Below are positions 2,026 to 61,309 of a stretch of DNA of 64,000 nucleotides, one piece after another; the stretch's first letter is position 1, and each line of letters begins with the position of its first letter. The notes under the pieces were generated by a model, which was not told the origin of the DNA, did no database searches, and was given only the letters and a program-made list of their open reading frames with translations. The stretch is from Alphaproteobacteria bacterium (GTDB lineage Bacteria; Pseudomonadota; Alphaproteobacteria; UBA11073), in assembly GCA_013289145.1 (NCBI GenBank), contig JABDAM010000001.1, forward strand, positions 4,466 to 68,465. The letters run 5' to 3'. A program made the translations under genes and the position numbers.

Positions 2026-3540
2026 TCACGCCGCGCGGCGTCCGGATTCCTGATAAGCCCCAAACAAGTTTAACCATTCACGCGTGCGCGCTTCGGGGTT
2101 TGCATTTTGCGATACATCTGAAATCACCGCGATGCCCGTCGCCCCCGCTCCTAAAACCTCTCGCGCATTTTCCAAGGTGATACCGCCAATGGCAACCAAT
2201 TGCCCATTCAGCATCCGGCGCCAATTGCACAATGTATCCAAACCTTGCGCGCCGAAACGCAAAACCTTGCTGCTAGTCTGAAAAATCGGCCCGAGCGCAT
2301 GATAAGATGGCTGGCACGCAACCGCACGTGCAAGCTCGGCATATGAATGCGTGCTGAGGCCAAGGCGCAAACCGCTTTTGACAATAGCCGCGATGTCGGC
2401 TGCTTCGATATCTTCCTGCCCTAAATGGATGCCGTATGCTTTGTGTTTGATCGCGATTTCCCAATGATCGTTGATGAACAAACGGCAGTTATATTCCCGC
2501 CCGACCGCAATTGCGGCGCGGATTTCATTTTCTAATTCCGCGCCAGTTTTATCCTTGATACGCAGCTGCGCCGTCGTGACGCCAAGCGGCAATAACCGCC
2601 GCAACCAATCCGCGCTATCCGCTAGCGGATAAAACCCCAGCGGTGTGTCGCCGCAATCAGGGAAATGCGCGCGGTTTCGCCCCGCCACCGCATCTGCCGT
2701 CAGCCACGGAAAATCATCCGCCGTGCATGGCAAGGGTTGATAAGTTAAAATCGGCGCGTCCTGGCCGAGCGGCTGCGACAGGCGCGTGAATTGATTGACG
2801 CTTGCCTTTGCCATCACGACCGCATCTTCTTCGGAATAACTTAGTGCATGCGCCGCCGCGATGGCGGAAGCAAAACTGCAACCCGTCCCGCGCGCATCAG
2901 TGTTGCGGCGGCGCGGCGATGTCAGCCAGAAACTTTGCGCCGCTGACTGATAAAAATCCTGTACAAAACCATTACCGTTATTCCAGCCTTTTATGATCAC
3001 TGCGCGCGTGCCAAGCAGGCAAATAAGCATCGCTGCTTTGACCACGTCTTTGTCGTTGGCGATTTTTACACCCGATAAAGCTTCCGCTTCCCGCACATTA
3101 GGCGTCAACAAATTTGTTAGCGGCAATAAATGCTCCTTCATTAGCGCAACAACATCGTCGCCAATCAAAGCGCGTCCGGAGGAAGCAATCATCACAGGAT
3201 CGCACACCACATAACTGTTCAAATTCTTTAAATTCTCCGCTAGCGCGCGCACGCTGTCCGCGTTACCGAGCATCCCAATTTTAATCGCACGCGGCGGCAT
3301 GTCGGATTTCAGCGCGTTAATCTGCGCCTCCAGCATCTGCGCGGAAACGGATTCAACCGCTGTCACCGCGCCTGTATTCTGCGCCGTCAACGCCGCGATC
3401 ACCGTACAGCCGTGCACACCCATCGCGGCAAACGTTTTCAAATCTGCCTGGATTCCTGCGCCGCCGCAGCTGTCCGATCCCGCAATCGTCCAAACAATAG
3501 GCCGCTGTTCTGGCGCGCGCGGAGCGTAAATTTCAATCAC
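2026..3540 (-). CDS. thiDE: Bifunctional hydroxymethylpyrimidine/phosphomethylpyrimidine kinase (ThiD) fused to thiamine-phosphate synthase (ThiE)
   Basis: The N-terminus ([20 protein letters not shown]) is typical of ThiD. The C-terminal about 210 aa are ThiE-like (GIHLGQEDI...LGLSTHS). There is a 4-nt overlap with thiG. Confidence 0.85.
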
Positions 3541-4319
3541 GCGCGTTTCTCCTCTTTCCAGAATGGCGTGCCAAGCGTTGGTGTTGAAGGCTCTGCAAAA
3601 TCACGCCGCGGCATCAGGCCTGCTTCGTATCCCATACGCCCAGCTTCAATCGCGCGCGCGAAAGCCTGCGCCATTTTGGGCGCATCATCGGCCAAAGCAA
3701 TTGCAGTGTTCAGCATCACGGCATCATATCCCATTTCCATTACCTGCGCGGCATGGGAAGGGGCGCCAATTCCGGCGTCGATAATCAGTGTCGTTTCCGG
3801 AAAACGCGCGCGCAAAGTTTTCAGCGCCTGCGCATTCGCAATCCCCTGCCCCGATCCAATCGGCGCGGCCCAGGGCATTAAAATTTTACATCCCGCTGCA
3901 ACCAGGCGTTCGGCCACCACCAAATCTTCAGTTGTATAAGGAAAAACTTCGAACCCATCGGCGATCAAAATCCGCGCGGCTTCGACCAATGCAAAAGGAT
4001 CCGGCGCCAACGTATATTCATCGCCGACCGTCTCCAATTTAATCCAGTTGGTTTTGAAAACTTCGCGCGCCATGTGGGCCGTGGTGATGGCTTCCTGCAC
4101 GCTGCGGCAATTGGCGGTGTTGGGCAGAAAGGCGATATTCATTTCGCGCAGCAAATCCCAGAATTTATTGCCATCACCGGCGGCCTGGCGGCGCAGTGAA
4201 ACCGTGACGATTTCAATCCCCGAACGCGTAATGGCTTCGCGCAGATTTTCCGGCGAACGATACCGCGACGTGCCGAGAACCAACCGGCTGGAAAAATTTT
4301 TACCGCCCAATTGCCACAT
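3537..4319 (-). CDS. thiG: Thiazole synthase ThiG
   Basis: 260 aa with a ThiG-like sequence (IVTVSLRR...KLETVGDE...). Sits in thi operon context. Confidence 0.9.
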
Positions 4320-19956: not shown

Positions 19957-20541
19957 TCAAGCGCCGCACAATTCGAGGAACCGCCGGTGCATCGGCGACG
20001 GCGTGTCGGGCGACAGTTCGGGGTGGAAGGTTGTCGCCATCGTATGGCCATATTCCACCCAGACGGGATGACCGCCATGTTCCGCCAGGATATTCACGCC
20101 CGCGCCGACAGTTTCGATCACGGGCGCGCGGATGAAGGCGACGTCATAGCCGTTGACCTGAGCATGAAAACTGTCGAGCTGGCTGCCGTAGGCGTTGCGC
20201 TGGACGCGGATCGGTAAAGCGCCGAAGGAGAATTGGGCGGGGTTAGTGACTTCATCGGCCAGCAGGATAGCACCCGCGCAGATGCCCCAGGCAGGGCGGG
20301 ATTTGACGAAGGCGCCAATGGGCTCGCGCAGGTGGTAGTAATCCATGATCCGCAGCATGGCGGAACTTTCCCCGCCGGGGAGGATCAGGCCGTCGAGGGC
20401 CGCCAAGTCTTCGGCATGGCGCACCTCCACGGGCTCGGCGCCCCCCATTTCATTGAGAGCGGCGATGTGGGGGTAATGCGGGGTGACGGCGCCTTGCAGC
20501 GCGAGAACTCCGATGCGATACATGAGGTGATAGATGGCCAT
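19957..20541 (-). CDS. pdxT: Pyridoxal 5'-phosphate synthase glutaminase subunit PdxT. The start could be 20523 or 20541.
   Basis: RIGVLALQGA...LILPGGES...GICAG...FHPE triad motifs. Confidence 0.85.
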   Translation of the reverse strand: MAIYHLMYRIGVLALQGAVTPHYPHIAALNEMGGAEPVEVRHAEDLAALDGLILPGGESSAMLRIMDYYHLREPIGAFVKSRPAWGICAGAILLADEVTNPAQFSFGALPIRVQRNAYGSQLDSFHAQVNGYDVAFIRAPVIETVGAGVNILAEHGGHPVWVEYGHTMATTFHPELSPDTPSPMHRRFLELCGA

Positions 20542-20966
20542 CCCCCGCCGCCCGTCAAGAGCCCGAACATAGCCAACCCCGAAAATGCGGAACAATCCCA
20601 TGCACCCGCCGTCTCGGGTTTTTATGTTACGAATTTAATCGTATCTTGGTAAGATTATTATACAACTCTCTCTCATCGTTTTGCTAAGCAATGCCTTAAG
20701 ATAAATTCCCTTCTCCCTGTAGGAAGAAGGTGGCGCAAAGCGCCGGATGAGGGGAGGATGAAAAGGAGGAAAGATCAGTTTTTATCCTGACACCTCCCCT
20801 CACCCGATTTGCTAAGTTCGTTCGCTGCGCCCCTCACTAAGCAAATCTGCCCTCTCCCTACCGGGAGAGGGGAAGCTTTAAAGGGCAAAGTATGAAAGTA
20901 ATAACCATTTTGACAAATAATCCATGGATATGATAAGGTTACACATAACTTTTAAGGAGAAACTTT

Positions 20967-22070
20967 ATGTCTGAAGATCAACGCCCCTCCTTGTGGGAGC
21001 TTTTTAATGTATCCAACACAATCAGTTTACGGGTTCCCGAAGAGGAGCTTATTAACGCAGTCCGTTCAGGACATTATAATGTTAATGCGTTTCTTGATAA
21101 ATTGAATGGTCCGGTGCTTTCCTTTGCGGCACGCATTCCTGGTTTGATTAGTTTGAATGCTGTAGAAGAGCTCCTCCGTGCCGGCGCCGAAACCTGCCCA
21201 GAAGCAAGTCCCTATAAAGGTGGGTGGTCAGCTCTGTTTGAGGCAGCAAATTATGGCAACCTCGCGTACTTAGAGCTTTTCCTAAAGTATCATGCCGACG
21301 CCAAGGAGGTGGGACACAACAACTATACAGCGCTCCACGTAGTAGCGGAAAGAACCAAAGGGAATCCGGAAGACAGAGCAAAGATGGTTGATCTGCTGGC
21401 GGCGGCAGGCGCCGATATCAACGCAAAAACGGCAGACAACGAAACCCCGGTATCACTAGCCGTTAAAGCTGGGAATGTTCCAGTCGTGCTGCGTTTATTT
21501 GCTCACGGCGCGAGCCCCTATCAAACTATGGCCGTAGCGGAAGAGACAGCGAATGGGCAAAAGGAATACAAGCAAAAAGGATTATTGGATCTGGCAACAA
21601 CGGAAGGCATGAAAGACGCCATCCGGCAGGTTCAAGCGGAGCGGAATAAAGAATTCCTCACTCCTTCAAATACACAAAAGGACGTGACGGACCTGAAACA
21701 AATGGTATCGGATCTGACGGATGAGATTGAGGGTCTGAAGGAGGAAGTTGCAAATTTGAAGGATCAAGTTGCAGATTTGAACGGAGCCAATGGGCGTCTG
21801 CAAGGCTGGCGGATAGATCTGGAAAATACGTTAATGGAGCAAGATATTAAAGTGCCGCCCAGACCCTTTGTCCTGGGTGAATCGGCGTTGAATGGCGCGT
21901 CTTATTTGGCAGGAGATGATAATGAGCCGCCAACAGAACCAAGATCCCGTCATGCGACAAATTTTGTAAGAACCGGCCTAGCCGCAGGTGTTGCTCCCGC
22001 AGAGCCAGGGGAGAAGATCGGCGCTAAACCATGGCGCGGCGGTTTCCGCCCGGGCGGCGCGGCGCTGTAA
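20967..22070 (+). CDS. Ankyrin-repeat protein with a central coiled coil, lower G+C. Candidate secreted effector.
   Basis: ANK repeats (NYTALHVVAE...DLLAAAGADINAKT...TPVSLAVKAGNVPVVLRLFAHGASP). A heptad-like LKQMVSDLTDEIEGLKEEVANLKDQVADL stretch. A/T-richer codons than its neighbours. Confidence 0.75.
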   Translation: MSEDQRPSLWELFNVSNTISLRVPEEELINAVRSGHYNVNAFLDKLNGPVLSFAARIPGLISLNAVEELLRAGAETCPEASPYKGGWSALFEAANYGNLAYLELFLKYHADAKEVGHNNYTALHVVAERTKGNPEDRAKMVDLLAAAGADINAKTADNETPVSLAVKAGNVPVVLRLFAHGASPYQTMAVAEETANGQKEYKQKGLLDLATTEGMKDAIRQVQAERNKEFLTPSNTQKDVTDLKQMVSDLTDEIEGLKEEVANLKDQVADLNGANGRLQGWRIDLENTLMEQDIKVPPRPFVLGESALNGASYLAGDDNEPPTEPRSRHATNFVRTGLAAGVAPAEPGEKIGAKPWRGGFRPGGAAL

Positions 22071-22967
22071 TCACCACCCGCGTTTCGCGAGGCGTTGGTC
22101 GGCGTCTATCGTTGCGATTTCAATCCCGCGCATGGCCGCCGGCAGGTTTGTTGATGCCGCCAAAAGATCCGCCGGAGTTTTGTAATGGGCGGTGGCTTTG
22201 ACGATGGCGCGCGCGAATTTCGCGGGATCTTCAGATTTGAAAATGCCGGAGCCGACAAAGACGGCTTCAGCGCCCAATTGCATCACCAGCGCCGCATCGG
22301 CTGGCGTCGCCACGCCGCCCGCGGAGAAATTCGGCACGGGCAAGCGGCCCAGGCGGCGGACTTCGTGCAGCAGTTCATAAGGTGCGCCGAGGTTTTTGGC
22401 TTCGGTCATCAATTCGGCTTCGTCGAGCGACAGCACGCGGCGGATATCCTGGTTGATCTGGCGCATGTGGCGCACGGCTTCAACGACGTTGCCCGTACCC
22501 GCCTCGCCTTTGGTGCGGATCATGGCCGCGCCTTCGCCGATCCGGCGGAGGGCCTCGCCCAGGTTGGTCGCGCCGCAGACGAAGGGAACTTTGAAGGCAT
22601 GCTTGTCGATGTGGAAATTATCGTCGGCGGGAGTCAGGACTTCGCTTTCGTCGATATAATCGACGTTCAAAGCTTCGAGAATTTGCGCTTCGGCGAAATG
22701 GCCGATGCGGCATTTCGCCATGACGGGGATATTGACGGCTTTTTGTACGGCCTGGATTAGTTCCGGCGGCGACATGCGCGCCACGCCGCCGTCGCGGCGG
22801 ATGTCGGACGGCACGCGCTCTAATGCCATCACGGCAACCGCCCCGGCATCCTCGGCAATCTTAGCCTGATCGGCGGTGACGACGTCCATGATGACGCCGC
22901 CCTTAAGCATTTCAGCAAGGCCGGTTTTAAGGTTGCGCGGAGAAGTGGCGGTGGGTTTTGCGTTCAT
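22071..22967 (-). CDS. pdxS: Pyridoxal 5'-phosphate synthase lyase subunit PdxS
   Basis: MNAKPT...LKGGVIMDV...AVMALERVP is PdxS-like. ATG at 22965-22967. The ORF-track extension to 23090 runs through the tRNA and is rejected. Confidence 0.9.
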
Positions 22968-23010
22968 GATTATATCTAGTCTATTTTGTTCGCAGAACAA
23001 AAACAAAGGC

Positions 23011-23096
23011 TGGTGGGTGGGGTAGGATTCGAACCTACGTACGCTCACGCGGGCGGATTTACAATCCGCTGCCATTAACCACTCGACCACCCACCC
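23011..23096 (-). tRNA. tRNA-Tyr (anticodon GTA) with a long variable arm, CCA encoded
   Basis: Reverse complement folds as a cloverleaf: acceptor GGGTGGG/CCCACCC, anticodon loop gattGTAaatc, long extra arm. Confidence 0.9.
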
Positions 23097-23113: not shown

Positions 23114-25270
23114 TTAAAAAGCTTTTTTATCCGCCGGTGTCAAGCTTTTCGTGTTATCCGGCGCTACATTTCCGGGATCCAGCGGGCTTGCGCCTGTGGT
23201 CGGATCATAGGGGCAATAGGCGTTGAAAAGCATGGATACAACCGTCCGCAAAGCGTCGCAACCTTGGCCGTTATGGCGGGCAATCAGTTCGTTCGGCCCC
23301 AACCAGGTCACGGCATAATTAAACCGGGCAAATTTTTCATTCGCCAGGCGCTGGTAATCAACCCCTGCCCGCTCCGGCGTGGTTATCAAGGTCATGTGAA
23401 TTTTGCGGCCATCCCAACTATCGGGATCATTGATATTAAAGACGTCAATTTTATCCGCGCGCCAGCCCAGGATACTGAGCGATACGGCGTTCAACGCGCC
23501 CAAAACATCCGCTTTATACCGGACATAGGTAAAGACCGGCTTTTCGTGATGGTTTTGCAAGCGTTCTAAATAAATGAGGGTATGAATCTTGTCGGCGATA
23601 AAATGTGAAACGTCATAACCGGCATTGGCGGTGTGCGGCACTTCGCGATAAACCAGTTTCAGGAAGTTGAATTTTTTCTCCTGCGGCAGCGCTTCCCATT
23701 GATGCACCAGCATTTGGTTGTCATCCAGATTGGGTTGATTATACGAGATCCATAATTCCTGATAGGGTTTGTGCGGAAACAAATAGTTATGCACCGCAGG
23801 CACGCACAGAGCAGCGGCGAAGGATAAAACAATCACCGTAATGCCGGCCATCGCGGTTTTGGCGATCGGCGCCTGTTCTGGCCAGCGCCAGTGTGCGGAT
23901 GAGAAAAATTTGCGCGGATGATCCAGCAGCATCGCGCCCTCATTCATAATAAATGCGGTAAATGACGGAATGGTAAAGAGCAAAGCCAACAAGGCAACAT
24001 AACCATAAGGCGGCGCCATGTAATAGACCAATCCTATGGCAACCGCATAACCGATATAAACCATCGCCATCATGCCCGCGATAAAAAGATGCTCCCCTCG
24101 CCGCCGCAATGCAAAAAGCAAAGCGGTCAGGCCCATAAGCGTGCACAAAATACTACTGAGATGACGGAAATCAAAATCATAATTGAATAATATATTGCTG
24201 GTGATGCGCGCCGCGAGGGAACGCGTCACAAATCCCGGGTCCTGGCGCCAGACCTGCATGAATTCTTTTTGAGCTGCGATGTCGTGCTTGGTGTAATCGC
24301 AATAATTATATCGAATGCCGTAATCTTTTTCAGTTTTGGTGAAAACGTATAAATCTTCATCCTCCAGGCCGTATTGGTTGGGATAATGGCCCAGCCCCTG
24401 AAACGCCGTGTGCCAGGACATGCGCGTGGAAAGCGCAAAGTGCCCCATGACGCTGGAGGCGCGCATAACCTGCGGCATGATGGTGAGGGCAAAGATCAAA
24501 AAGAAAATACCGCAATAACGCCGCAATGACGGCACCGTTAAAAACACGGCGATAAAGGTAAGCGCCACGATCAACGCCGTCGACCGCACCCACAGGGTGA
24601 AACCGATCGCGGCGGCGGCCAGGATAATCAGCGGAATGGCGTAAAGGCGTTTGTCGCCCTCCACCAGCGCCCGCCGCGCCCAGATCAAAGATATCACCGC
24701 CAATGAAATCAGCCAGCCTTCCCAGAAATATTGAAAGGGAAAGACCGCCTGATAGGCAAACACCGGATGGACGCCGTAAAATAATCCCGCCATCGTCGCG
24801 GGAATAATCCCCATGCGCAGAAACGTAAAAAATAATAAAAACAACATCACGCCGTCGCAAACCAATTGCAGGCATTCGGCGCGCAAATAACTATCGGGAA
24901 TATCGGTCATCAACTTGCGCGCAATCGCCACGATAATGCCGAAACCGGGATCGAGCGCGAGATAAGTGCATTTGCCGTCTTTGGGAGAGTCGTTCAAAAT
25001 ATAATCACTGATCTGAAGGCGGTGCATGTTGACCATCATGCGCGAGATATCAACCACGCCCAATTTCTCGCCTTTTAACCAGTTTTCCGACATATCGTGG
25101 AAAGTGTAATAATTCGGATGGATCGTTTGATTAGGCGGGATCTGATATAAAAACAAAAAATCAAACCGCGTCGTGAACCAAGACCCAAAACAAAGCAGCA
25201 GCGCGCCCAAAACCAGCCATTGTTTGCCTGTCAGATAAAAATTAAGGCTGGCTTTGGATGGGTTGTCCAT
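23114..25270 (-). CDS. Polytopic membrane protein, 718 aa, about 12 TM plus a C-terminal about 250-aa soluble domain. Paralog of the upstream gene. Function unknown (GT-C-like architecture?).
   Basis: Multiple hydrophobic helices. Conserved loop motifs LDPGFG and [28 protein letters not shown] are shared with its neighbour. Confidence 0.6.
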
Positions 25271-27293
25271 TTAACTCTCCGCATTGATGATTGAAATAAC
25301 GCGCCAATTGCAGCCGCGTTTCGGAACAGCCGTCATGCACATGCGCGCCGATATATTCGCCATTGCCCAGGGCGCGCAGATCCCAGTTCCAATGGTCGAA
25401 TTTTTTTATCATCAATTCATCGACGCGTTGGGCTGATAATAATGTATTAGGCACCAGTTTAATGCGCAGTTGCTTGCCTTCCCATGTCGCCGGGTCGGCA
25501 ACGTCAAAAGAACTGATTTCGGCATAACCGACGCCCGCAATGGATTGCGACGCACGCGCCAGCGGTTCGTAGGTGTCGCTGTCCACCTTCCGGTTGAACC
25601 AGAATTCGCCGCCCGAGCCGTCCAGATTGGTAAAGCTGGCTTCGCGTAAGTTTTGAATGACATATTGGTAAACCGGATCGTCCGGCCCGCTAATATGATT
25701 TTCCGTATGGGATTTCATAAAAGCGATCAGACGCGCATGCACCGCGGGTGGCAGAGCATCAATGCGCTCATGCAGCTTCATAAAGGCTTTTCCCATAATC
25801 ACCGGCGGCGTATCCCAGCGCACGGTGATAACCGGATTAGGCGTGAAATATTGCTGCACCGGCGGGAAAAATAAGACCACCGCGACAATGGCGGAAAACA
25901 ACAGGCCGATATTGACCGGCTGGATTTTATCCTTGTCCCATTTGGGCCAATCGCGCCGGATCGCGCGGCGCACCAATTCACACAGCCCCGCCACCGCGAC
26001 GGCAGAACCGAAAATATTCATCATCTGCGTGGGATAGGAATATTCGCGGTGAATATAATAGACGAATGAATAGGCCGTATTAATCAAAACATACATCATC
26101 GCGGCCAGCAGCGCCAAAACCTGCATATCGCCACCGAGCCACAGGCCGAACATCAAACCCGCCCAGGCGGCGAATAAAATATAATGATCCCAGAAGACGA
26201 AATTCTGATCGCTGAAGTTGCCAAAGATGCTGGCGAACATGCGCTGGGCGATGGAATGGACGATGTAACCCGGATTATCATGCCATAGCGCCTGGTATTT
26301 TTGCTTCATCACCTGGTCTTCCTGGCTGTAATCACAGAAATTATAATTTATATGATCTTCCTGGTGCGAACGTTCGAACAGATATAAATCGTCATCCTCC
26401 AGCGCATATTGGTTGGGATAATGCCCCAGCGCCTGAAAGGCCGTATGCCACGACATGCGCGTGGAATAAGCCAGATGGCCGCTGAGCTGCGTCGCGCGCA
26501 TCACCATACCGCCCGCAAAGAGCACGTAAATCACGGCGGGGTAAATCAGCCAGGGGCGAAGCGTTTTGGAAAAGATCGCCGAGGCGCCGAGCATAATGGG
26601 CGCGAAAATAAACCAGCTGCTGCGGATCCAAACGCCCGCGCCCAAAATCAGGCCGAGCAGAATCGCCAGCGTGATAAGCATCGCCTTTGGCCGGTCGTCT
26701 TTTTGCAGACGGTAAATCCAGAGCAGCAGCAAAACCGACAGCGTCGCCACCAGCCCGTCCCAGAAATGATACCAGGCCGCGTCGGCGCTAAGCGCGAAAA
26801 CGCTGTGCGAGGCATAAAGCAGCGCGCCGAAAACCGCCGGGATCCAGCCCCAGCGGTAAAAGGTCAGATAAAAAAAGATCACCAGCAACGCATCCAAAAA
26901 TAATTGGATGGAAATAATCCGCATTTCCGTATCAGGAATAAAAAACATTATTTTATTCGCGGCCGCGTAAATGCCGCCCAAACCGGGATCCAATGTTTTA
27001 AACGCGCAATATTTATCACCGGGCTGGCGGTCGGTTTTATAAACTTCCTTGGAAGAAAAATCCAAATTGCGCATCAGGCGCATTTCATTAACCTCGCCGA
27101 ATTTATGGCCTTCATCCAGGCTGACGGCGATGTCCTTAAACACCTTTGTCATCGCGTGATGCATCGGCTCAAAATTAAAGATCAGATAAACGCGCGTGCC
27201 GGCCCAACCCGCCAGCACAATCACGAGGCCCAGAGCAAAGAAAAATTTCCGCCAAGCTTGGGCATTGGGGTTTGTCGCGTCGAATTGCATCAT
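25242..27293 (-). CDS. Polytopic membrane protein, 683 aa, tandem paralog of 23114..25270
   Basis: Same architecture. Motifs [34 protein letters not shown] and CDYSQED are shared with the downstream paralog. Confidence 0.6.
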   Translation of the reverse strand: MMQFDATNPNAQAWRKFFFALGLVIVLAGWAGTRVYLIFNFEPMHHAMTKVFKDIAVSLDEGHKFGEVNEMRLMRNLDFSSKEVYKTDRQPGDKYCAFKTLDPGLGGIYAAANKIMFFIPDTEMRIISIQLFLDALLVIFFYLTFYRWGWIPAVFGALLYASHSVFALSADAAWYHFWDGLVATLSVLLLLWIYRLQKDDRPKAMLITLAILLGLILGAGVWIRSSWFIFAPIMLGASAIFSKTLRPWLIYPAVIYVLFAGGMVMRATQLSGHLAYSTRMSWHTAFQALGHYPNQYALEDDDLYLFERSHQEDHINYNFCDYSQEDQVMKQKYQALWHDNPGYIVHSIAQRMFASIFGNFSDQNFVFWDHYILFAAWAGLMFGLWLGGDMQVLALLAAMMYVLINTAYSFVYYIHREYSYPTQMMNIFGSAVAVAGLCELVRRAIRRDWPKWDKDKIQPVNIGLLFSAIVAVVLFFPPVQQYFTPNPVITVRWDTPPVIMGKAFMKLHERIDALPPAVHARLIAFMKSHTENHISGPDDPVYQYVIQNLREASFTNLDGSGGEFWFNRKVDSDTYEPLARASQSIAGVGYAEISSFDVADPATWEGKQLRIKLVPNTLLSAQRVDELMIKKFDHWNWDLRALGNGEYIGAHVHDGCSETRLQLARYFNHQCGELNGQPIQSQP

Positions 27294-33469: not shown

Positions 33470-35296
33470 TTAGAGTTCCAAACGGCGACCAGGCTCACAA
33501 CGGCGAAGGAATTTTTGTTCGGGTGTGAGGTATTTGCGGTGATGGAAGTCGCCTCCGCCGGAGTCGCCGCCGCTGGAGTCGAAGCCTCCGCCACCGCCAC
33601 CGTTATCATTGCTACCGCCGCCATCGTTATCATTGCCGCCGCCGCTCCAGGTGCTATTGTTGTCATTGTTGTTGTCATTGTTGTTATTGTCATTGTCATT
33701 GTCATTGTTGCTGCGGCTCCAGTCATTACCACCGCCGTTGCCAGAAGACCAGTTATTGCCTCCGCCAGTAGGCGAGATGTCCATGTCTGAAACAGATGGG
33801 ATTTCAAAACTAAATGCGTTGCCGCCGCCGGTATTGCCCGTATCGCCAAAGCCGTTTTCACCCATCGCAAAACCAGCGTTAGATGCTTCCAAACCACTCG
33901 ACAGGACTTCATCCGTCGCATCCGCATTATGAACGCCAGACATGTCGAAACCCGACATATCAACATCAGATGCAATATCCTGAATATGATCTGGGATAAC
34001 AAAGGCATCAGGCGGCAGATCCGCTGCATCCATTTGTGCCTGTTGAACATTCAGCATCGATGCATAATACAATGCATCGTTATTTTGCTGCGCCAAATTC
34101 TGCCACATGCGGGAGTTCAACTTATCCTTGAAACTGTCATCCACAACAACGACCGTATAATCAGGCTGATAGGTGGAAACAGAAGTACGGAAACTGCCCG
34201 AGCGAATAGTCGATTGGCGCGCTGCCACTGTCTGGCACGCTACACGTTGTTCAATTACATCCAAATCCAAATTAGGAATTTGACGCGACCCGTGCCCATT
34301 GCGGATTTCTGTATTGAAGCTAGGAAGCGGCTTTTCAAGCTCTTGAATGTTCCCGTCAATGCCATCGATCTGCGCTTGCAGCGCCTTATCTGATTTTTGC
34401 AATCCTTCGACCTGGATCACGGCCAGGGCGATCGGGCCGGCAGCTTCAAGACCAAACACTTCGACCAAGGCATCCACAAATTCAGGGTTTTTAAGAGCGA
34501 CATCTACCACCGTAGCGGCAATCGTTTCCTGCATTTCTTCCGTGGTTGTAAGCTTCTCGTCCAATTTTTTCATCCGCTTTTGCAGATCGTTCATTGTCTG
34601 AATGGTGTGGGTGAAAGATTGGATTTGTTCCTGTTGTTCCTGATAATCTTTGCGGCATTCTTCTGCCTTTGCTTCAAGCGTGGTTTTTACTTCAAGATCT
34701 GTATAGAAATCGCCATGCACGGGTTCATAGTTTGCCACAACCTTAACCGCATCATGGAAATCATCCTGAAAGAAAAATGCCTTAAAGTTGTCCCAGCGAC
34801 TGAGTTTGGCATTATAATAACTACCAAAATTGCTTCCATCGATCTTTTTGTAATGGGTTTCATTATAACGCTTAATACCGGCAAGCGCATTATCGATTTC
34901 CAGGATGCCCTTTTGGTCAGACTGAAACATCTCATTGATTTCAATCTTTTTTTTCTCTGCCGCTTCCTTGGAAGCGATCTCCGTAGCCGGCGAATGCCAT
35001 TGTTCTTTTAATGGTTTAATGCTCTCTTCAACAGTGGCGTTTTGCTGATGAAAACCAGCCAATATTCTGTCAAAACTACGGCCCGCATTCGAGCGGATGG
35101 ATGCATCATCGAATTTAGCAATCGCTTCAGGGGAAAGATCCGAAAGAAGCTCAATAGCTTTTTGAGCCATTCTGTCTTTCGTGGTTTCAATCTCTGTTTG
35201 GGTAGCATCGGATTCCGCGACCAATCCGTTCCGGACATTTTTTAGATCTTTAGTTAATTCTTTAAATTTAGCGCTTGCTTGGTTGATAGTTGACAT
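33470..35296 (-). CDS. Coiled-coil protein (608 aa) with a C-terminal Gly/Asn/Asp-rich low-complexity tail. Candidate effector.
   Basis: N-terminal about 450 aa are rich in heptad-like K/E/L/Q segments. The tail is GGGN..NDNDNDNNNNDNNNDNN..GGGGGG. Confidence 0.6.
   Translation of the reverse strand: MSTINQASAKFKELTKDLKNVRNGLVAESDATQTEIETTKDRMAQKAIELLSDLSPEAIAKFDDASIRSNAGRSFDRILAGFHQQNATVEESIKPLKEQWHSPATEIASKEAAEKKKIEINEMFQSDQKGILEIDNALAGIKRYNETHYKKIDGSNFGSYYNAKLSRWDNFKAFFFQDDFHDAVKVVANYEPVHGDFYTDLEVKTTLEAKAEECRKDYQEQQEQIQSFTHTIQTMNDLQKRMKKLDEKLTTTEEMQETIAATVVDVALKNPEFVDALVEVFGLEAAGPIALAVIQVEGLQKSDKALQAQIDGIDGNIQELEKPLPSFNTEIRNGHGSRQIPNLDLDVIEQRVACQTVAARQSTIRSGSFRTSVSTYQPDYTVVVVDDSFKDKLNSRMWQNLAQQNNDALYYASMLNVQQAQMDAADLPPDAFVIPDHIQDIASDVDMSGFDMSGVHNADATDEVLSSGLEASNAGFAMGENGFGDTGNTGGGNAFSFEIPSVSDMDISPTGGGNNWSSGNGGGNDWSRSNNDNDNDNNNNDNNNDNNSTWSGGGNDNDGGGSNDNGGGGGGFDSSGGDSGGGDFHHRKYLTPEQKFLRRCEPGRRLEL
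33656..33712. repeat. Hexanucleotide (ATTGTC/ATTGTT)n microsatellite encoding (Asn-Asp)n, plus adjacent GGC/GCC repeats (33540..33650)
   Basis: attgttgtcattgttgttgtcattgttgttattgtcattgtcattgtcattgtt is seen directly. Also a 16-nt direct repeat gccgccgctggagtcg x2. Confidence 0.8.
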
Positions 35297-42131: not shown

Positions 42132-43238
42132 ATGTCTCTAAAATTAACATTTGAACAAGACCGAACCACCCAGATTGAACTCATTGGCGAAGAGAAAGCC
42201 AGGGTTATCAGCGCCTATGCAGAAACAGCGGGCAGGCAGAAGCTGGCTACAGCATTATTCGCTCAGCTATCCCCCAGCCGTCTCGATTTCTTTCTCCACT
42301 TGGCAGGAGAGAGCATATTTCACGCACCTCCACGGAATGAGTACTGTTTTTTGCGAGACTTAACGGCCAGTATACCACTAGTGGATGTTAAACGCCTGGA
42401 TATGGTAATGAGTTCAATGCAATATCATAACAACATATTAACGGATTTTTCTGAAACTCTCTGTGATTTCCTGCGTCAAAATCCAAAAAAGGATCCCGAG
42501 GCGGCGGCTGGCTTTCTTGGGGCAATAGACGGTGATCACGGCCGCGAGGTATTAGGCGGAATCATTGAAGCTCTACTTGATGTGTCTGATTCAGGATATG
42601 AATTAATTCATGATCTGGCAATGAATTTGTACGCCTCGAAGGGCGCCAGATTAGATGAGTTTTTGGAATCTTCCGGCATTATATCACCTAGTGACCGGGA
42701 ATTATTCGAAGAACTTAAGCTGGTTGCCGCTAAAAAAATCTATTCTGAAATGCCTCCTGCAGATCAGAACATATTTATCTTATTAACCAAAAAAATCACC
42801 GCTGATGCAATAAGTGCGGAAGATTATAAATTGCTTGAATTTTTTGCCGGAGATGAAATAGCCGCCTTTATTCCTGAAAGTGAAAGCCTTCCCGGCAGTA
42901 TTTTAAGTCTTCTGAAATTATATTCTGCATGTGAGCGTACTGATCCGCGTGGCGGGCTTACAGGAATATCCCCTGAAAATTATCACTTATTATCCGGACA
43001 CCTTCTTAAAATGTCAGATGAAGAACGTGAAACGATGTGCCGCGTCATCACTGGGGGAAGCCCAATATCCGCCACGAACGGCAAAATGATCAAGTTTGTT
43101 AGTGCCGATCAAGATTCATGGATTTTCTATATATCTGAATTCGCGAGGTTCAGTAACGCAAAATTGGTGATAACAAATAATGGCAAGCCCCCGTTACCGC
43201 CGACCGGTGGAAACCGCCCAGAGCCACTGCAAGGCTAA
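42132..43238 (+). CDS. Hypothetical protein (368 aa), lower G+C (ORFan)
   Basis: ORF only. Preceded by a near-consensus TTGACA-N19-TATAGT element. Confidence 0.5.
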   Translation: MSLKLTFEQDRTTQIELIGEEKARVISAYAETAGRQKLATALFAQLSPSRLDFFLHLAGESIFHAPPRNEYCFLRDLTASIPLVDVKRLDMVMSSMQYHNNILTDFSETLCDFLRQNPKKDPEAAAGFLGAIDGDHGREVLGGIIEALLDVSDSGYELIHDLAMNLYASKGARLDEFLESSGIISPSDRELFEELKLVAAKKIYSEMPPADQNIFILLTKKITADAISAEDYKLLEFFAGDEIAAFIPESESLPGSILSLLKLYSACERTDPRGGLTGISPENYHLLSGHLLKMSDEERETMCRVITGGSPISATNGKMIKFVSADQDSWIFYISEFARFSNAKLVITNNGKPPLPPTGGNRPEPLQG

Positions 43239-47719: not shown

Positions 47720-48352
47720 CTAAAGTGACAAGCTGTTTGCCCTTGATTTTAATACACCCCAGGATATCCCGCAAACTATAGCTGAAAGAATGAATATTGC
47801 AGTCGAATATGGCAAGAGCTGTACTTGCCATGCCAAAGCTTCCTTTCTTTCGCCAACGGTGATCGTGCTGCGGAAAGCTGTTTGGGGGGTGGCAAGGAGG
47901 CTTTGATCTTCAGGCTTAGTGATCACATAACTATCAGGAACATCTTTTAAAAAAGATTCTTCATTAGGCGCAGTGATCGCACCGCCCAGCGCGGCCGCGC
48001 CAGAAAGCAAACATATCGTGCCAGACACCATAGAGGTGATTACAGCCACACCTTCCACCTTGCCTTCCGTTCGCCTGCGTTCATTAGCGGCTTTATTACG
48101 TTGCTGCTGCGCTTCCCATTGCCGCTCCTCTGGCGTCATGGAAGCTTCTCTTGCAAGATTTCTATTTCTGATATTATCCCAAAACTCATCCCCCGTATGA
48201 ACTGGAACAAATTTCCCGTCCGGCTCGAATTGTCCGATTGCGGGCTCTATTGGATCATATTTCCTGCTAAAGCGCCCGCTATAATCATATAATTTTTCCG
48301 GGGCCAGCGGCGACAAATTCTCGCTCTGTTCATTTTTGGTGTCTTTAGACAT
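47720..48352 (-). CDS. Hypothetical membrane protein (210 aa, two C-terminal hydrophobic helices), lower G+C
   Basis: Hydrophobic segments VAVITSMVSGTICLLSGAAALGGAI and AIFILSAIVCGISWGVL. Confidence 0.45.
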   Translation of the reverse strand: MSKDTKNEQSENLSPLAPEKLYDYSGRFSRKYDPIEPAIGQFEPDGKFVPVHTGDEFWDNIRNRNLAREASMTPEERQWEAQQQRNKAANERRRTEGKVEGVAVITSMVSGTICLLSGAAALGGAITAPNEESFLKDVPDSYVITKPEDQSLLATPQTAFRSTITVGERKEALAWQVQLLPYSTAIFILSAIVCGISWGVLKSRANSLSL

Positions 48353-51796: not shown

Positions 51797-52279
51797 TTAT
51801 ACCTTCAATGTTGGTCCAGTCGATACGACCCCTTGCCGTTTAGCCGATGCGGTTTGCAGCCGCTGCGCTTCCTGTTGGTCACGTTGGCTCTTATCTTCAA
51901 TCCGTTCAGCTTGCTGTAATACTGTTCTCCACTTTGTCATTTGACCAAAAAAATCAGCCTTTGGATGCTTGCTAGCAGGGAAAACCACAGCCATATGTTC
52001 ATGATCAATATTCTCCCCTGCTATAGCCATTATCAACCCCCCAATAATAAGGCCTAAACTAACCGACGTATTTGCATTAAGATTAGGCCCCATCATCACT
52101 GTACCTATAAGACCAGCCATCACCCCTGCCATGCTAGCTAGCCGACTCCAACCCACAAATTCAGGAATATTATCATGCAAAACATGGAGTGCATATGCTT
52201 TAGCCTCACCAGGATCAATTTTACCGCTGCCAATATCTGCGATTAAAGAACCTCTTCTACGAAAAAACATTCCAGACAT
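51797..52279 (-). CDS. Small membrane protein (bilobed hydrophobic domain), 'MFFRR' family, paralog A
   Basis: MSGMFFRRRGS... AGGAGG sits 5 nt upstream of the ATG at 52277-52279. Hydrophobic core MAGVMAGLIGTVMMGP...SLGLIIGGLIMAIAG. Confidence 0.5.
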   Translation of the reverse strand: MSGMFFRRRGSLIADIGSGKIDPGEAKAYALHVLHDNIPEFVGWSRLASMAGVMAGLIGTVMMGPNLNANTSVSLGLIIGGLIMAIAGENIDHEHMAVVFPASKHPKADFFGQMTKWRTVLQQAERIEDKSQRDQQEAQRLQTASAKRQGVVSTGPTLKV

Positions 52280-52416
52280 GCACACCTCCTTATAAGTTAA
52301 TCAAGTACTTTCAGGGTAACAGGAATTTATCTAAAATTCAATGAATTTATTACTTGCAAGCCGATGGAAGCTGAAAAATCTTGACTTCAAACACTTAAAC
52401 TCAACATAAAAGACAA

Positions 52417-53045: not shown

Positions 53046-53765
53046 TTAAGGAGTAGCTTTCGGCGCGTTTACCGGCGCTTTGCCTGAGAACTCACGCTTA
53101 ACAAATGCCATCATAGAACCGTGGGTTTTGCCGACATTTTCTACGCGATCAACAATAGCAAAACGCTTTTCCATTTCAGGAGTCACTGGGGGGTTATTAT
53201 AAAGTCCAGCGGGCGGATCATCCACAGCATCATTAATTTTAAGTTCTTTCAAGAAAGCTTCCCGCCTTGCTTTTTTCTCAGGATGCGTAGCGTCCCAATT
53301 TTTCCGTATCTGATCGACAGTTTTGTTCCAATCATTATATTCCTGCAACCAGTTAGGGCCGTATAGTGTAACGAGTTGCTTACTCGGAACCCAATGCTTT
53401 TCCAAAGCTTCTTTAGCGTCAAAAGGATCAGTAAATTGAAGTTTATCTTGAGGCTTATTTTCAACCGCAGTTATTTTGTCATATAAAGCGGCAGCTTTGA
53501 AAGCTGCAGGTTTATTGCCACCTTCAATGGCGTCTATAACTTTAAACTCTAATTCTTGTTTATCCAATTGCTCAAAGTAGTCATATTTCTCACTTTTGGT
53601 AGCAATGACTAAATCTATTTTATCTATCGATGTTCTCCGTAAAATAATTCCTTCCGTTACTTTCGGCTGAAAAGGCTCCGGCGGAAAATCCTGCGCAACG
53701 GCAAAAGATGTTGTTAACGCTGCAAAACCCAAAACGGCGGCGTTACGGGCGTGACCAAAGTTCAT
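53046..53765 (-). CDS. Hypothetical secreted protein (signal peptide), lower G+C
   Basis: N-terminal AAVLGFAALTTSFAVAQD signal-like segment. Lys/Glu-rich body. Confidence 0.5.
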   Translation of the reverse strand: MNFGHARNAAVLGFAALTTSFAVAQDFPPEPFQPKVTEGIILRRTSIDKIDLVIATKSEKYDYFEQLDKQELEFKVIDAIEGGNKPAAFKAAALYDKITAVENKPQDKLQFTDPFDAKEALEKHWVPSKQLVTLYGPNWLQEYNDWNKTVDQIRKNWDATHPEKKARREAFLKELKINDAVDDPPAGLYNNPPVTPEMEKRFAIVDRVENVGKTHGSMMAFVKREFSGKAPVNAPKATP

Positions 53766-57814: not shown

Positions 57815-58702
57815 TTATGCGGTTAGCTCCACTTTATATTTCGGCTGTTTTCCAGCGGGCACACGCATATTCCATTTGAGAATAGAGTTCAAAGAACTCT
57901 CTGAATCGAACTTTTTATCCCACCCGGCGTCGCTTATAAATTTGCGCGCCGCACTGCCATCCGTAATCTCCAATCTGCGGGTTTTTTTACTATATGGGCT
58001 GAAAGCCCCTCCGTCACTTACGCGAAACGCCTCGACGGGCTCAATCCCATTGGCAGGATTCCAATATTGAATAAAAGTATCCGCAACGCCTACGATGCCT
58101 GGAATATTGTCAAAATAAGGCTGGCGTTTATCCGTGACATGATTTTCAGGCAACAAAAAAAGCACGCGTTCGTTTTCCGGCATATCGGTCTTGCGATTTT
58201 CAGCCTTATTGCGCTCCAGGCAAATATCAACGGGTGCTGAAAAACCGGCGATAGTTACCGTATAACCTTTGCTTTTGGCTTCTTCAAATAATTTTAATGC
58301 AAACGGCGAGGCTGCCGTGCCGACAGCGATTAAATCATAACCTTCGTCCAAAGCGCGTTTATTGGCGTTGATGGAAATCCAATTGGACGCATTGCGCCAT
58401 TTTTCATAGGCATATTCAAAACCGCGCTCCGCCAAATCACGCTGATATCCGGGAATGGCGCACAAACAATTATCATTCACATCCACTAAAACCGCGTTGG
58501 GATTTTCACGTGCCAGCTGACGCGCATAACGCGATTTACCGGCACCAGGCACACCGCCAGTGCCGATAAATTTTTTATGCACTGATGGGCGCTTTCCCTT
58601 AAATAATTTTTCTAAAACGTCCCGAACTTCGGAAATCTCTGCGCGTGTTAAACCGTCAAAATTATCTTTTTGACTAACGAAAAGATTGTTTGGATTAGTC
58701 AT
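57815..58702 (-). CDS. P-loop kinase-like protein, zeta-toxin / AAA-type (Walker A GTGGVPGAGKS)
   Basis: Walker A motif followed by a hydrophobic strand and Asp (VLVDVND), reminiscent of zeta-toxin/UNAG-kinase-like phosphotransferases. About 110-aa C-terminal extension. Confidence 0.55.
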   Translation of the reverse strand: MTNPNNLFVSQKDNFDGLTRAEISEVRDVLEKLFKGKRPSVHKKFIGTGGVPGAGKSRYARQLARENPNAVLVDVNDNCLCAIPGYQRDLAERGFEYAYEKWRNASNWISINANKRALDEGYDLIAVGTAASPFALKLFEEAKSKGYTVTIAGFSAPVDICLERNKAENRKTDMPENERVLFLLPENHVTDKRQPYFDNIPGIVGVADTFIQYWNPANGIEPVEAFRVSDGGAFSPYSKKTRRLEITDGSAARKFISDAGWDKKFDSESSLNSILKWNMRVPAGKQPKYKVELTA

Positions 58703-61080: not shown

Positions 61081-61234
61081 AATAGTGAAAATAAACTTAG
61101 CCGTAAACAGGCTGGACCAGTCCACCTTCGCTACGCTACGGCGCGACAGCTTTCTTATCTTTAGCCGAAATGGCGGAACCTAGAACACTGGCTTGCCGAG
61201 CCGAAGTTTTTGTTCGCAAAACAAAAACGAAGGC

Positions 61235-61309
61235 TGGTGGGCGGCGAGGGGATCGAACCCCCGACCCTTTCGGTGTAAACGAAACGCTCTACCGCTGAGC
61301 TAGCCGCCC
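61235..61309 (-). tRNA. tRNA-Val (anticodon TAC), CCA encoded
   Basis: Reverse complement is GGGCGGCTAGCTCAGCGGTAGAGCG...tttcgtttTACaccgaaa...GGTTCGATCC...GCCGCCCACCA. Confidence 0.9.

Follow-up and report, generated by a model that had tools for sequence, protein, structure and literature searches.

In the canonical operon for pyridoxal phosphate (PLP) synthase, pdxS and pdxT are intact, co-oriented and conserved neighbors with a usual spacing of 0-20 nt and translational coupling. Bacterial ankyrin-repeat (ANK) proteins are known from other settings: in Pseudomonas aeruginosa a single ANK gene stands beside housekeeping/stress genes, and this gene of a non-intracellular bacterium is co-transcribed with katB and encodes AnkB, which has an export or membrane signal, while intracellular pathogens carry many ANK genes, whose effector products (Legionella AnkB and AnkX, the Coxiella Anks, Anaplasma AnkA and the Orientia Anks) combine a short ANK array with lineage-specific non-ANK regions. 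ANK proteins are enriched in host-associated bacteria yet present across all bacterial lifestyles (PMC3932732). A third described arrangement is the noncontiguous operon of Staphylococcus aureus, in which the interposed and the polycistronic mRNAs control one another by way of polymerase collision and RNase III (PMC7154746). Here, we describe a locus in 64,000 nt of an uncultured alphaproteobacterium (contig JABDAM010000001.1 of assembly GCA_013289145.1; hereafter, the window), where pdxS and pdxT are likewise intact, co-oriented and conserved, but the usual spacing and coupling are replaced by a 1547-nt interval with an antisense gene, designated ank, for an ANK-repeat protein. It appears fairly probable that ank is an old, lineage-specific, fast-evolving accessory gene in a slot opened by the split of the pdxS-pdxT operon.

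The pdxS-pdxT split and the gene in its slot

The comparison covered 80 loci retrieved from genomes with PdxS, 80 retrieved from metagenomes with PdxT and extra contigs obtained by exact protein look-up. In 155 loci, the same-strand gap between pdxS and pdxT had a median of 12 nt and was longer than 200 nt in 16 and longer than 1 kb in 5 of them, which agrees with the view of a first-pass annotation of this DNA that the two genes normally form an operon. That annotation had also described a separation of about 1.5 kb by a plus-strand ANK gene whose stop abuts that of pdxS, and its coordinates for ank, pdxS and the pdxT interval were all confirmed: the ORF (open reading frame) listing of the window places a 367-codon plus-strand ORF between minus-strand pdxT and pdxS, its TAA directly against the TCA of pdxS (Table 1). 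The gap measures 1547 nt to the conserved ATG of pdxT at 20523, or 1529 nt to the ATG at 20541 chosen earlier. The pdxT ORF as called spans 19957..20601, and the extension to 20601 has no counterpart upstream in relatives; 20523 is most likely the start because the PdxT proteins of relatives align from the conserved MYRIGVLALQG, at about its residue 3. An opposite-strand gene within the gap was found only in the window and in one other sampled locus, L081, while the larger gaps in other phyla hold small same-strand genes; pdxS and pdxT parted by a gene on the other strand are a rare and derived condition, seen in one small clade only. The same-strand gap genes seen elsewhere were OsmC (L072, L074) and DinB (L059, L061), these four loci forming the Terriglobia/Acidobacteriota set, and an EamA-like fragment in Micavibrio (L004).

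In the six lineages closest to the window, PdxS is 91-93% and PdxT 69-73% identical, and the PdxS proteins of L081 and L083 reach 92-93%. L081, an 86-kb contig, has the gene order pdxS-[gap]-pdxT-wrbA-hemH-hemA, as in the window. Its gap of 1105 nt holds an opposite-strand ANK ORF of 229 aa (Pfam Ank_5, E = 4e-17) that has no zipper, stops 3 nt from the pdxS stop and has a GC content of 0.44 against 0.56-0.57 in the flanks. The flanks are 76-80% identical in DNA between the window and L081, and the identity extends exactly as far as the stop codon of pdxS and the start codon of pdxT, ending at window positions 22069 and 20517, respectively. In L083 and L164, the gap is 411 nt and keeps the 3' end of an L081-type ANK gene (phmmer E = 4e-12; 77% DNA identity), about 670 nt having been lost, ANK repeats included. 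The first-pass annotation had read ank as an insertion and had named the same gene at this position in relatives, with native composition, as the finding that would speak against it; the ANK gene of L081 and the remnant of L083/L164, at the same site and in the same orientation, are largely that finding. Other near relatives differ. Compact gaps of 0-10 nt occur in L082 and L162/163 and likewise in the more distant L168/169, L172, L173 and L174; L166 and L167 have a 410-aa lipoprotein-like gene ahead of pdxT, with pdxS absent from the contig. A 351-aa HAD-like hydrolase gene occupies the gap of L165 on the same strand (3163-4218), and a HAD phosphatase beside PLP synthase might act on PLP or pyridoxine phosphate. 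Tblastn searches of the window interval for remnants of the L165 HAD protein, the 410-aa and 489-aa proteins of L166 and the L081 ANK protein found nothing.

Neighbor-joining (NJ) trees of PdxS, of PdxT and of both combined grouped the window with L081+L083 at 78% bootstrap, with 100% for L081+L083 and 100% for the clade of six lineages. Because the ANK-bearing lineages group in the trees and share the slot, one ancestral ANK insertion is the simplest reading. An ANK gene would have lodged antisense between pdxS and pdxT in the common ancestor of the window, L081 and L083/L164, a clade of uncultured alphaproteobacteria, with its stop set against that of pdxS. The slot would afterward have diverged past recognition at the DNA level, giving the soluble 367-aa ANK/zipper protein of the window and the 229-aa ANK protein without a zipper in L081, and in L083/L164 its gene would have decayed to a remnant by the deletion of about 670 nt. 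The two ANK genes are alike in slot, strand, a stop 0-3 nt from that of pdxS and a basic C terminus of the product, and both proteins have about 20 non-ANK residues and then SGHY at residues 34-37. This N-terminal similarity (reached in 1 of 2000 shuffles) was considered as evidence of orthology and downgraded because the segment resembles an ANK N-cap and each full-length protein matches a DARPin consensus better than it matches the other.

Several observations weigh against a common origin of the slot genes. The intervals of the window and L081 have no detectable DNA similarity. Their ANK proteins match by BLASTP in two collinear segments with E = 7e-4 and 0.003 and have a Smith-Waterman score of 71 (z ≈ 6.6), and each scores 126-128 against the DARPin consensus, so that the similarity between them is that of the ANK consensus only. 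Support for the ANK clade is moderate, the 78% bootstrap coming from two proteins, and L165 trees with compact-operon lineages (90% bootstrap) yet shares the pdxT-hemH synteny of the ANK clade. A mobile-element origin is hinted at by an 11/12 inverted repeat at the borders of the window interval (20543-20554 and 22051-22062; CCCCGCCGCCCG / CGGGCGGCGCGG), 20 nt from the pdxT start and 9 nt from the pdxS stop. Relatives lack this repeat, which was picked post hoc; a match as good was reached in 11 of 2000 end-shuffles, and the repeat may be a chance product of the GC-rich ends. Independent arrival or replacement at an insertion hotspot would look identical to descent from one insert: in this clade, the pdxS/pdxT junction might recombine or take insertions repeatedly, with the ANK genes of the window and L081 as unrelated cargos and the same-strand HAD gene of L165 as another. 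Such a hotspot would account for protein similarity that does not exceed that to the ANK consensus, for the absence of DNA similarity and for the different layouts (zipper and tail in the window, a short basic tail in L081), and the HAD gene of L165, the L166 410-aa gene upstream of pdxT and the OsmC, DinB and EamA genes at the junction in other phyla speak for it as well. It is much coincidence, however, that two independent cargos should both be ANK genes, both antisense, both with a stop 0-3 nt from that of pdxS and both with SGHY; moreover, the ANK-bearing lineages are monophyletic in the NJ trees, and ANK genes are scarce, the 64-kb window and 12.5 kb of L081 having a single one each. We therefore regard independent cargos as unlikely and prefer a single ancestral insertion.

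Table 1. Features of the pdxT-ank-pdxS region in window coordinates
Feature	Coordinates	Strand	Basis or remark
pdxT, glutaminase subunit of PLP synthase	19957..20523	-	Pfam SNO E = 3.9e-41
Divergent pdxT-ank intergenic region, 443 nt, GC 0.463	20524..20966		Contains the 425-nt "leader" of the first-pass annotation
Terminator-like hairpin and T-run (ACCCGCCGTCTCGGGT TTTTATGTTA)	20604..20629	+	Consensus match only
Nested GC-rich palindrome cluster	20696..20883	-	RNA fold, nhmmer
Promoter-like site for ank, ATGAAA-18-AATAAT	20892..20921	+	9/12 consensus matches, consensus only
Shine-Dalgarno AAGGAG, 7 nt ahead of ank ATG	20954..20959	+	Read from sequence
ank coding sequence, ANK-repeat/leucine-zipper protein P0001, 367 aa	20967..22070	+	ORF, Pfam, AlphaFold2 (AF2)
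ANK repeat domain, residues ~54-185	21126..21521	+	Four canonical repeats after a cap-like helix pair
Beta-hairpin (187-205) and helix (213-231) after the repeats	21525..21659	+	AF2 pLDDT (predicted local distance difference test) ~85-92, prediction only
Leucine zipper, seven heptads, residues 237-285	21675..21821	+	Heptad count, AF2 helix
Disordered Gly/Ala/Pro/Arg-rich tail, residues 293-367	21843..22067	+	Sequence, AF2
Touching convergent stops: ank TAA 22068-70, pdxS TGA (TCA on + strand) 22071-73	22068..22073		Sequence
pdxS, synthase subunit of PLP synthase, 299 aa	22071..22970	-	Pfam SOR_SNZ E = 3.1e-108
tRNA-Tyr(GTA), 40 nt upstream of pdxS	23011..23096	-	ARAGORN; Rfam tRNA 58 bits

The ank protein and the effector question

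The product of ank is an ankyrin-repeat protein by Pfam thresholds and by the criterion of an ANK solenoid fold. The Ank families PF12796, PF00023, PF13606, PF13637 and PF13857 were tested, with at least two tandem repeats of ~33 residues above gathering thresholds as the criterion, and all five exceeded their gathering scores over residues ~54-187 (E = 1.7e-12 to 6.6e-8): Ank_2 with 48.2 bits (cut-off 27.3), Ank with 46.0 (21.1), Ank_3 with 41.5 (22.3), Ank_4 with 33.5 (22.7) and Ank_5 with 33.2 (27). The best phmmer matches in the PDB were ankyrin-1/2 (E = 3.7e-35). The protein has four or five repeats, four of them canonical and preceded by a cap-like helix pair (residues 25-45). Statements on structure rest on the AF2 model mae2b6ac67b95, which was built on an alignment of generic ANK matches and has a block-mean pLDDT of 76-98 over residues ~51-230, with lower confidence for the cap-like pair; the model made without an alignment was poor (pLDDT 49.8). 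The coiled coil noticed in the first-pass annotation proved to be a leucine zipper, defined here as at least four consecutive heptads with hydrophobic residues at a, Leu at d and a continuous helix. There are seven heptads (QKDVTDL, KQMVSDL, TDEIEGL, KEEVANL, KDQVADL, NGANGRL and QGWRIDL), with V, V, I, V, V, N and I at the a positions, a single Asn among them, and Leu at all seven d positions, and AF2 helices at residues 233-273 and 279-291 span them. The zipper DNA has a 21-nt periodicity (repeat D5), and the zipper gave weak matches to DivIC and SlyX. The tail carries a net charge of +3 over its last 19 residues and is encoded by a segment with a GC content of 0.59. Judged from these domains, the ank product would act as a coiled-coil-mediated dimer or oligomer displaying ANK protein-binding surfaces and is thus proposed as an adaptor or decoy for some partner protein, perhaps one of a host or prey.

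In a word-indexed search of 5.8 billion proteins, ank matched itself and generic ANK proteins, nearly all with less than half coverage; the generic matches cover at most 47%, except for one weak match at 73%. The L081 ANK protein likewise found only itself and generic ANK matches. HMMER with ank residues 196-367 against 1.84 billion representatives gave only the query itself and 14 weak coiled-coil matches, and nothing beyond generic ANK or weak coiled-coil matches came from the PDB, PADLOC and PHROGs. In the sets searched, ank is an orphan bacterial ANK/coiled-coil protein without specific homologs; an identical gene call exists in the Logan assembly of SRR8427201 (locus L161). The best generic matches, P0171 and P0173, were rejected as orthologs because they lie in settings unrelated to this locus, one on a eukaryote-like contig and one in a bacterium with multiple ANK genes.

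The first-pass annotation described ank as low in G+C and as looking like an inserted effector gene. With a GC content of 0.509 and a third-codon-position GC content (GC3) of 0.484, ank is indeed low beside pdxT (GC 0.637) and pdxS (GC 0.610), and local GC is 0.42-0.52 across the interval against ~0.60 in the flanks. Measured against the 55 non-overlapping ORFs of the window (GC 0.525±0.047, GC3 0.577±0.097), however, ank lies within one standard deviation, and it is the ORFs of pdxT (GC 0.63, GC3 0.76) and pdxS (GC 0.60, GC3 0.70) that occupy the top of the range. Scattered Pfam-less genes of the window have GC3 values of 0.36-0.53, like or below that of ank, compared with 0.6-0.75 in conserved core genes, and the codon-position GC pattern of ank is typical of coding sequence. 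Because the GC dip is a contrast with two unusually GC-rich neighbors, recent transfer is not indicated by composition. No integrase, transposase or target-site duplication was found at the ank interval, the border inverted repeat being its one nominally unusual feature of that type; a recent, compositionally foreign insertion is not supported.

A more specific version of that idea, in which ank would be a recently acquired foreign gene for a secreted, eukaryote-targeting effector inserted into the operon of this genome, strikes us as quite unlikely. It is encouraged by the frequency of the ANK domain in effectors of host-associated bacteria (PMC3932732), by the absence of orthologs, by the position of ank as the sole plus-strand gene within a 25-kb minus-strand run (2026-27293), by the basic tail and the L081 tail with SPSRKRARKSD, by the weak border inverted repeat and by the local GC drop relative to pdxS and pdxT. 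This drop, though, comes from neighbors that are themselves the outliers, and an ANK gene or its remnant fills the same slot in sister lineages. Besides the lack of mobility genes and of a duplicated target, there is no Sec signal. The first-pass annotation had suggested predicting secretion signals; no signal peptide, transmembrane segment or other hydrophobic segment was detected in ank (maximum hydropathy 1.28), and neither secretion genes nor another ANK gene occur in the 64-kb window. Full synthesis of thiamine, heme, NAD and PLP is also encoded, which is atypical of an obligate intracellular lifestyle.

As a putative effector of whatever origin, ank is an unlikely candidate. It resembles the ANK effectors of intracellular bacteria in having a short ANK array with lineage-specific non-ANK regions, no Sec signal, a basic C terminus, fast evolution and variable presence among relatives. 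It differs in having no specific sequence or fold similarity beyond generic ANK, no F-box, FIC or other effector module, no known T4SS or host association and only one ANK gene in 64 kb, compared with the many of such pathogens. The searches of the 5.8 and 1.84 billion proteins, the PDB, PADLOC and PHROGs revealed neither a homolog among characterized effectors nor any catalytic or adaptor module of eukaryotic type, only the generic ANK and coiled-coil matches. The disordered C terminus with its positive charge is compatible with a translocation signal but is not diagnostic of one. With P. aeruginosa AnkB it shares the situation of a single ANK gene beside housekeeping/stress genes; in contrast to that protein, ank is antisense to its neighbors and lacks a hydrophobic segment. 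The counterpart in L081 (4893-5582, minus strand) ends in HQSPSRKRARKSDTGLSGGP, a basic stretch resembling a monopartite nuclear localization signal (NLS). A gene that diverges fast, has been lost in a sister lineage and encodes basic tails could be an effector or arms-race gene, but these features fit a dispensable gene equally well.

A further reading is that the ORF is non-functional, either a decaying relic or spurious. No ortholog was found that could show purifying selection, the gene is lost in the sister lineage L083/L164, and the last 75 residues are of low complexity and continue until the border with pdxS offers a first stop. Yet the ORF has 367 intact codons behind a strong Shine-Dalgarno sequence, its ANK repeats are well kept, with Pfam scores above cut-offs and the high block-mean pLDDT given above, and it combines a perfect seven-heptad zipper with coding-type codon-position GC, all of which makes a non-functional ORF extremely unlikely.

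Palindromes upstream of pdxT and transcription across the interval

The divergent region between pdxT and ank contains a nested cluster of GC-rich palindromes (CCCTCTCCC..GGGAGAGGG, GGGTGAGGGGAGG..CCTCCCCTCATCC, GGCGC..GCGCC and CCTTCTTCC..GGGAGAAGG) with predicted RNA folds of -95 and -98 kcal/mol (z = -7.7 on the plus strand and -6.6 on the minus strand). Palindrome modules in the same order and orientation lie directly upstream of pdxT in L166 (2736-2912) and L167 (1594-1770; nhmmer E = 6e-6). Between the window and these two loci, the stems of the ~180-nt cluster are conserved and the loops divergent, and in L166/L167 the last palindrome arm, GGGAGAAGG, occupies the place expected of a Shine-Dalgarno sequence. 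Neither pdxS nor ank is adjacent to pdxT there, and we assign the cluster to pdxT because pdxT of L166 carries it without either gene beside it. The cluster is probably part of the upstream or regulatory region of pdxT and not an ank leader; it may serve to terminate read-through from pdxS, as promoter context or as a leader structure. The repeat-rich leader of 425 nt that the first-pass annotation gave to ank is thus palindrome-rich, as described, but its main element more likely belongs to pdxT. The 5' untranslated region of ank seems short, since a promoter-like site and the Shine-Dalgarno sequence stand close to the ATG. Promoter-like sites on both strands of the intergenic region were no more frequent than in shuffles, numbering 4 compared with 2.6±1.6 expected, and terminator-like sites of hairpin and T-run numbered 6, compared with 4.2±2.0 expected.

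Strings of GC-rich imperfect palindromes with conserved stems and divergent loops are also typical of clusters of the REP/BIME type (repetitive extragenic palindromes/bacterial interspersed mosaic elements). Unlike these elements or a miniature inverted-repeat transposable element (MITE), the cluster is single-copy in the sequence searched: one copy was found in the window, and no further copies beyond L166/L167 were found in the window plus the fetched loci (1.6 Mb). Its occurrence only upstream of pdxT, in two lineages, points to a cis element tied to one gene rather than to a dispersed repeat, and a cis-regulatory role specific to pdxT is possible. Rfam did not match the cluster; over the window interval Rfam found only the neighboring tRNA-Tyr, and in L081 and L083 nothing. 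A block of ~200 nt upstream of pdxT is 80-82% identical among L081 (5783-5990), L083 (5797-5990) and L164. As a candidate conserved RNA, this block was discarded, being no more conserved than adjacent coding DNA (84%) and so giving no sign of selection, and it showed no Rfam match and only one covarying pair.

The first-pass annotation saw no room for a terminator between the convergent genes, and a consensus scan indeed predicted no intrinsic terminator after the ank stop or the pdxS stop. Folding of the ~85-100 nt that follow each stop gave z-scores of +0.3 to +1.2 in both the window and L081. Since no intrinsic terminator follows either gene, a 3' antisense overlap of the pdxS and ank transcripts is plausible. 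In the arrangement we envisage, ank would use its own Shine-Dalgarno sequence and promoter-like site and pdxT its own upstream region with the palindrome cluster, and the pdxS and ank transcripts would probably run antisense into each other unless Rho stops them.

A stronger coupling would make the locus a noncontiguous operon or excludon, in which pdxS and pdxT are co-transcribed across the antisense of ank and the mRNAs repress each other by polymerase collision and RNase III, so that PLP synthase output is tied to ank expression. As in the S. aureus noncontiguous operon and the Listeria excludons (PMC7154746), an opposite-strand gene lies between co-oriented, functionally linked genes and, here by prediction, no terminator separates the convergent partners; the topology is that of S. 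aureus menE-menC-MW1733-ytkD-MW1731 (PMC7154746, citing Saenz-Lahoya 2019). The missing terminators and the convergent stop-to-stop layout are moreover common to two lineages, the window and L081. In contrast to the S. aureus operon, pdxT of the window seems to have its own upstream element. A terminator-like hairpin on the minus strand (20730-20709) lies inside the palindrome cluster; with the separate upstream element, it suggests a promoter of pdxT's own, and the two weigh mildly against co-transcription of pdxS and pdxT. Antisense read-through that is not translated is normally cut short by Rho, and the layout was lost without replacement in L083/L164. Mutual repression of this kind in the window is distinctly unlikely in our estimation. 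We give somewhat less credence still, and consider very unlikely, a conserved noncontiguous operon pdxS-[ank]-pdxT in which the ank mRNA also serves, over its full length, as antisense RNA to an untranslated part of a pdxS-pdxT transcript, and ank expression and vitamin B6 synthesis are mutually exclusive; there, selection would have favored the abutting stops without terminators that two diverged lineages retain. If true, such an operon would set vitamin B6 synthesis in opposition to an ANK/zipper protein that evolves fast and may be directed at a host or prey.

The surrounding window and what the split means

By PdxS (73-81% identity), the closest named relatives of the source organism are Micavibrio-like metagenome-assembled genomes (MAGs) and MAGs named "Alphaproteobacteria bacterium", and the organism is an uncultured alphaproteobacterium with an ALA (5-aminolevulinate)-synthase heme pathway. 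The 64 kb hold housekeeping genes (gyrA, ssb, uvrA, eno, nadA/C and H+-PPase) and complete cofactor pathways. The minus-strand run around ank (2026-27293) is a cofactor "supercluster" with a thiD/thiE fusion, thiG, thiO, thiC, a ThiF-rhodanese gene, nadE, hemY-like and radical-SAM (hemN-like) genes, hemE, hemB, hemC, ALA synthase, hemH, wrbA, pdxT, pdxS and tRNA-Tyr. The pdxS ORF as called (22071..23090) overlaps tRNA-Tyr with its first 40 codons; because the longer ORF runs over the tRNA, we take 22071..22970, with the ATG at 22970, as the genuine gene. Gene callers stretch pdxS across tRNA-Tyr in this way to give products of 334-339 aa. A 52-nt repeat (85% identity) at 22984-23035 and 61208-61259 covers the 3' ends of tRNA-Tyr and tRNA-Val, and within it an identical AT-rich hairpin, TTTTGTTCGCAGAACAAAA, lies just 3' of both tRNAs; the copy at tRNA-Tyr ends 14 nt short of the pdxS start codon. 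Two adjacent large ORFs at 23114-25270 (718 aa) and 25242-27293 (683 aa) have no Pfam match, appear to encode membrane proteins and look like paralogs, with a 130-nt stretch in common at 78% identity. Pfam-less ORFs of low GC3 (0.36-0.48) stand among GC-rich core genes at 33470-35296, 42132-43238, 47720-48352, 51797-52285 and 53046-53765, the first of which, of 608 aa, carries 9-12-nt tandem repeats (TGTTGTCAT) at 33591-33699. A zeta-toxin/AAA_33-like ORF of 295 aa with a GC3 of 0.43 (57815-58702) lies amid housekeeping genes.

The direct impact of ank is small, as it adds one more orphan bacterial ANK protein. For reading composition, the locus illustrates that recent transfer cannot be argued from a local GC dip beside core genes that are GC-rich and highly conserved. 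An association with a host or prey is considered because the nearest named relatives are Micavibrio-like MAGs, and if the organism is so associated, the ank product and its L081 counterpart with the NLS-like tail would be candidate effectors. The wider value of the locus is as a clean case from nature in which an antisense gene split an ancient operon of two tightly coupled genes; the split lasted through speciation, and the gene lodged in it then changed past recognition or fell into decay, which bears on how operons break up and on how noncontiguous operons might originate.

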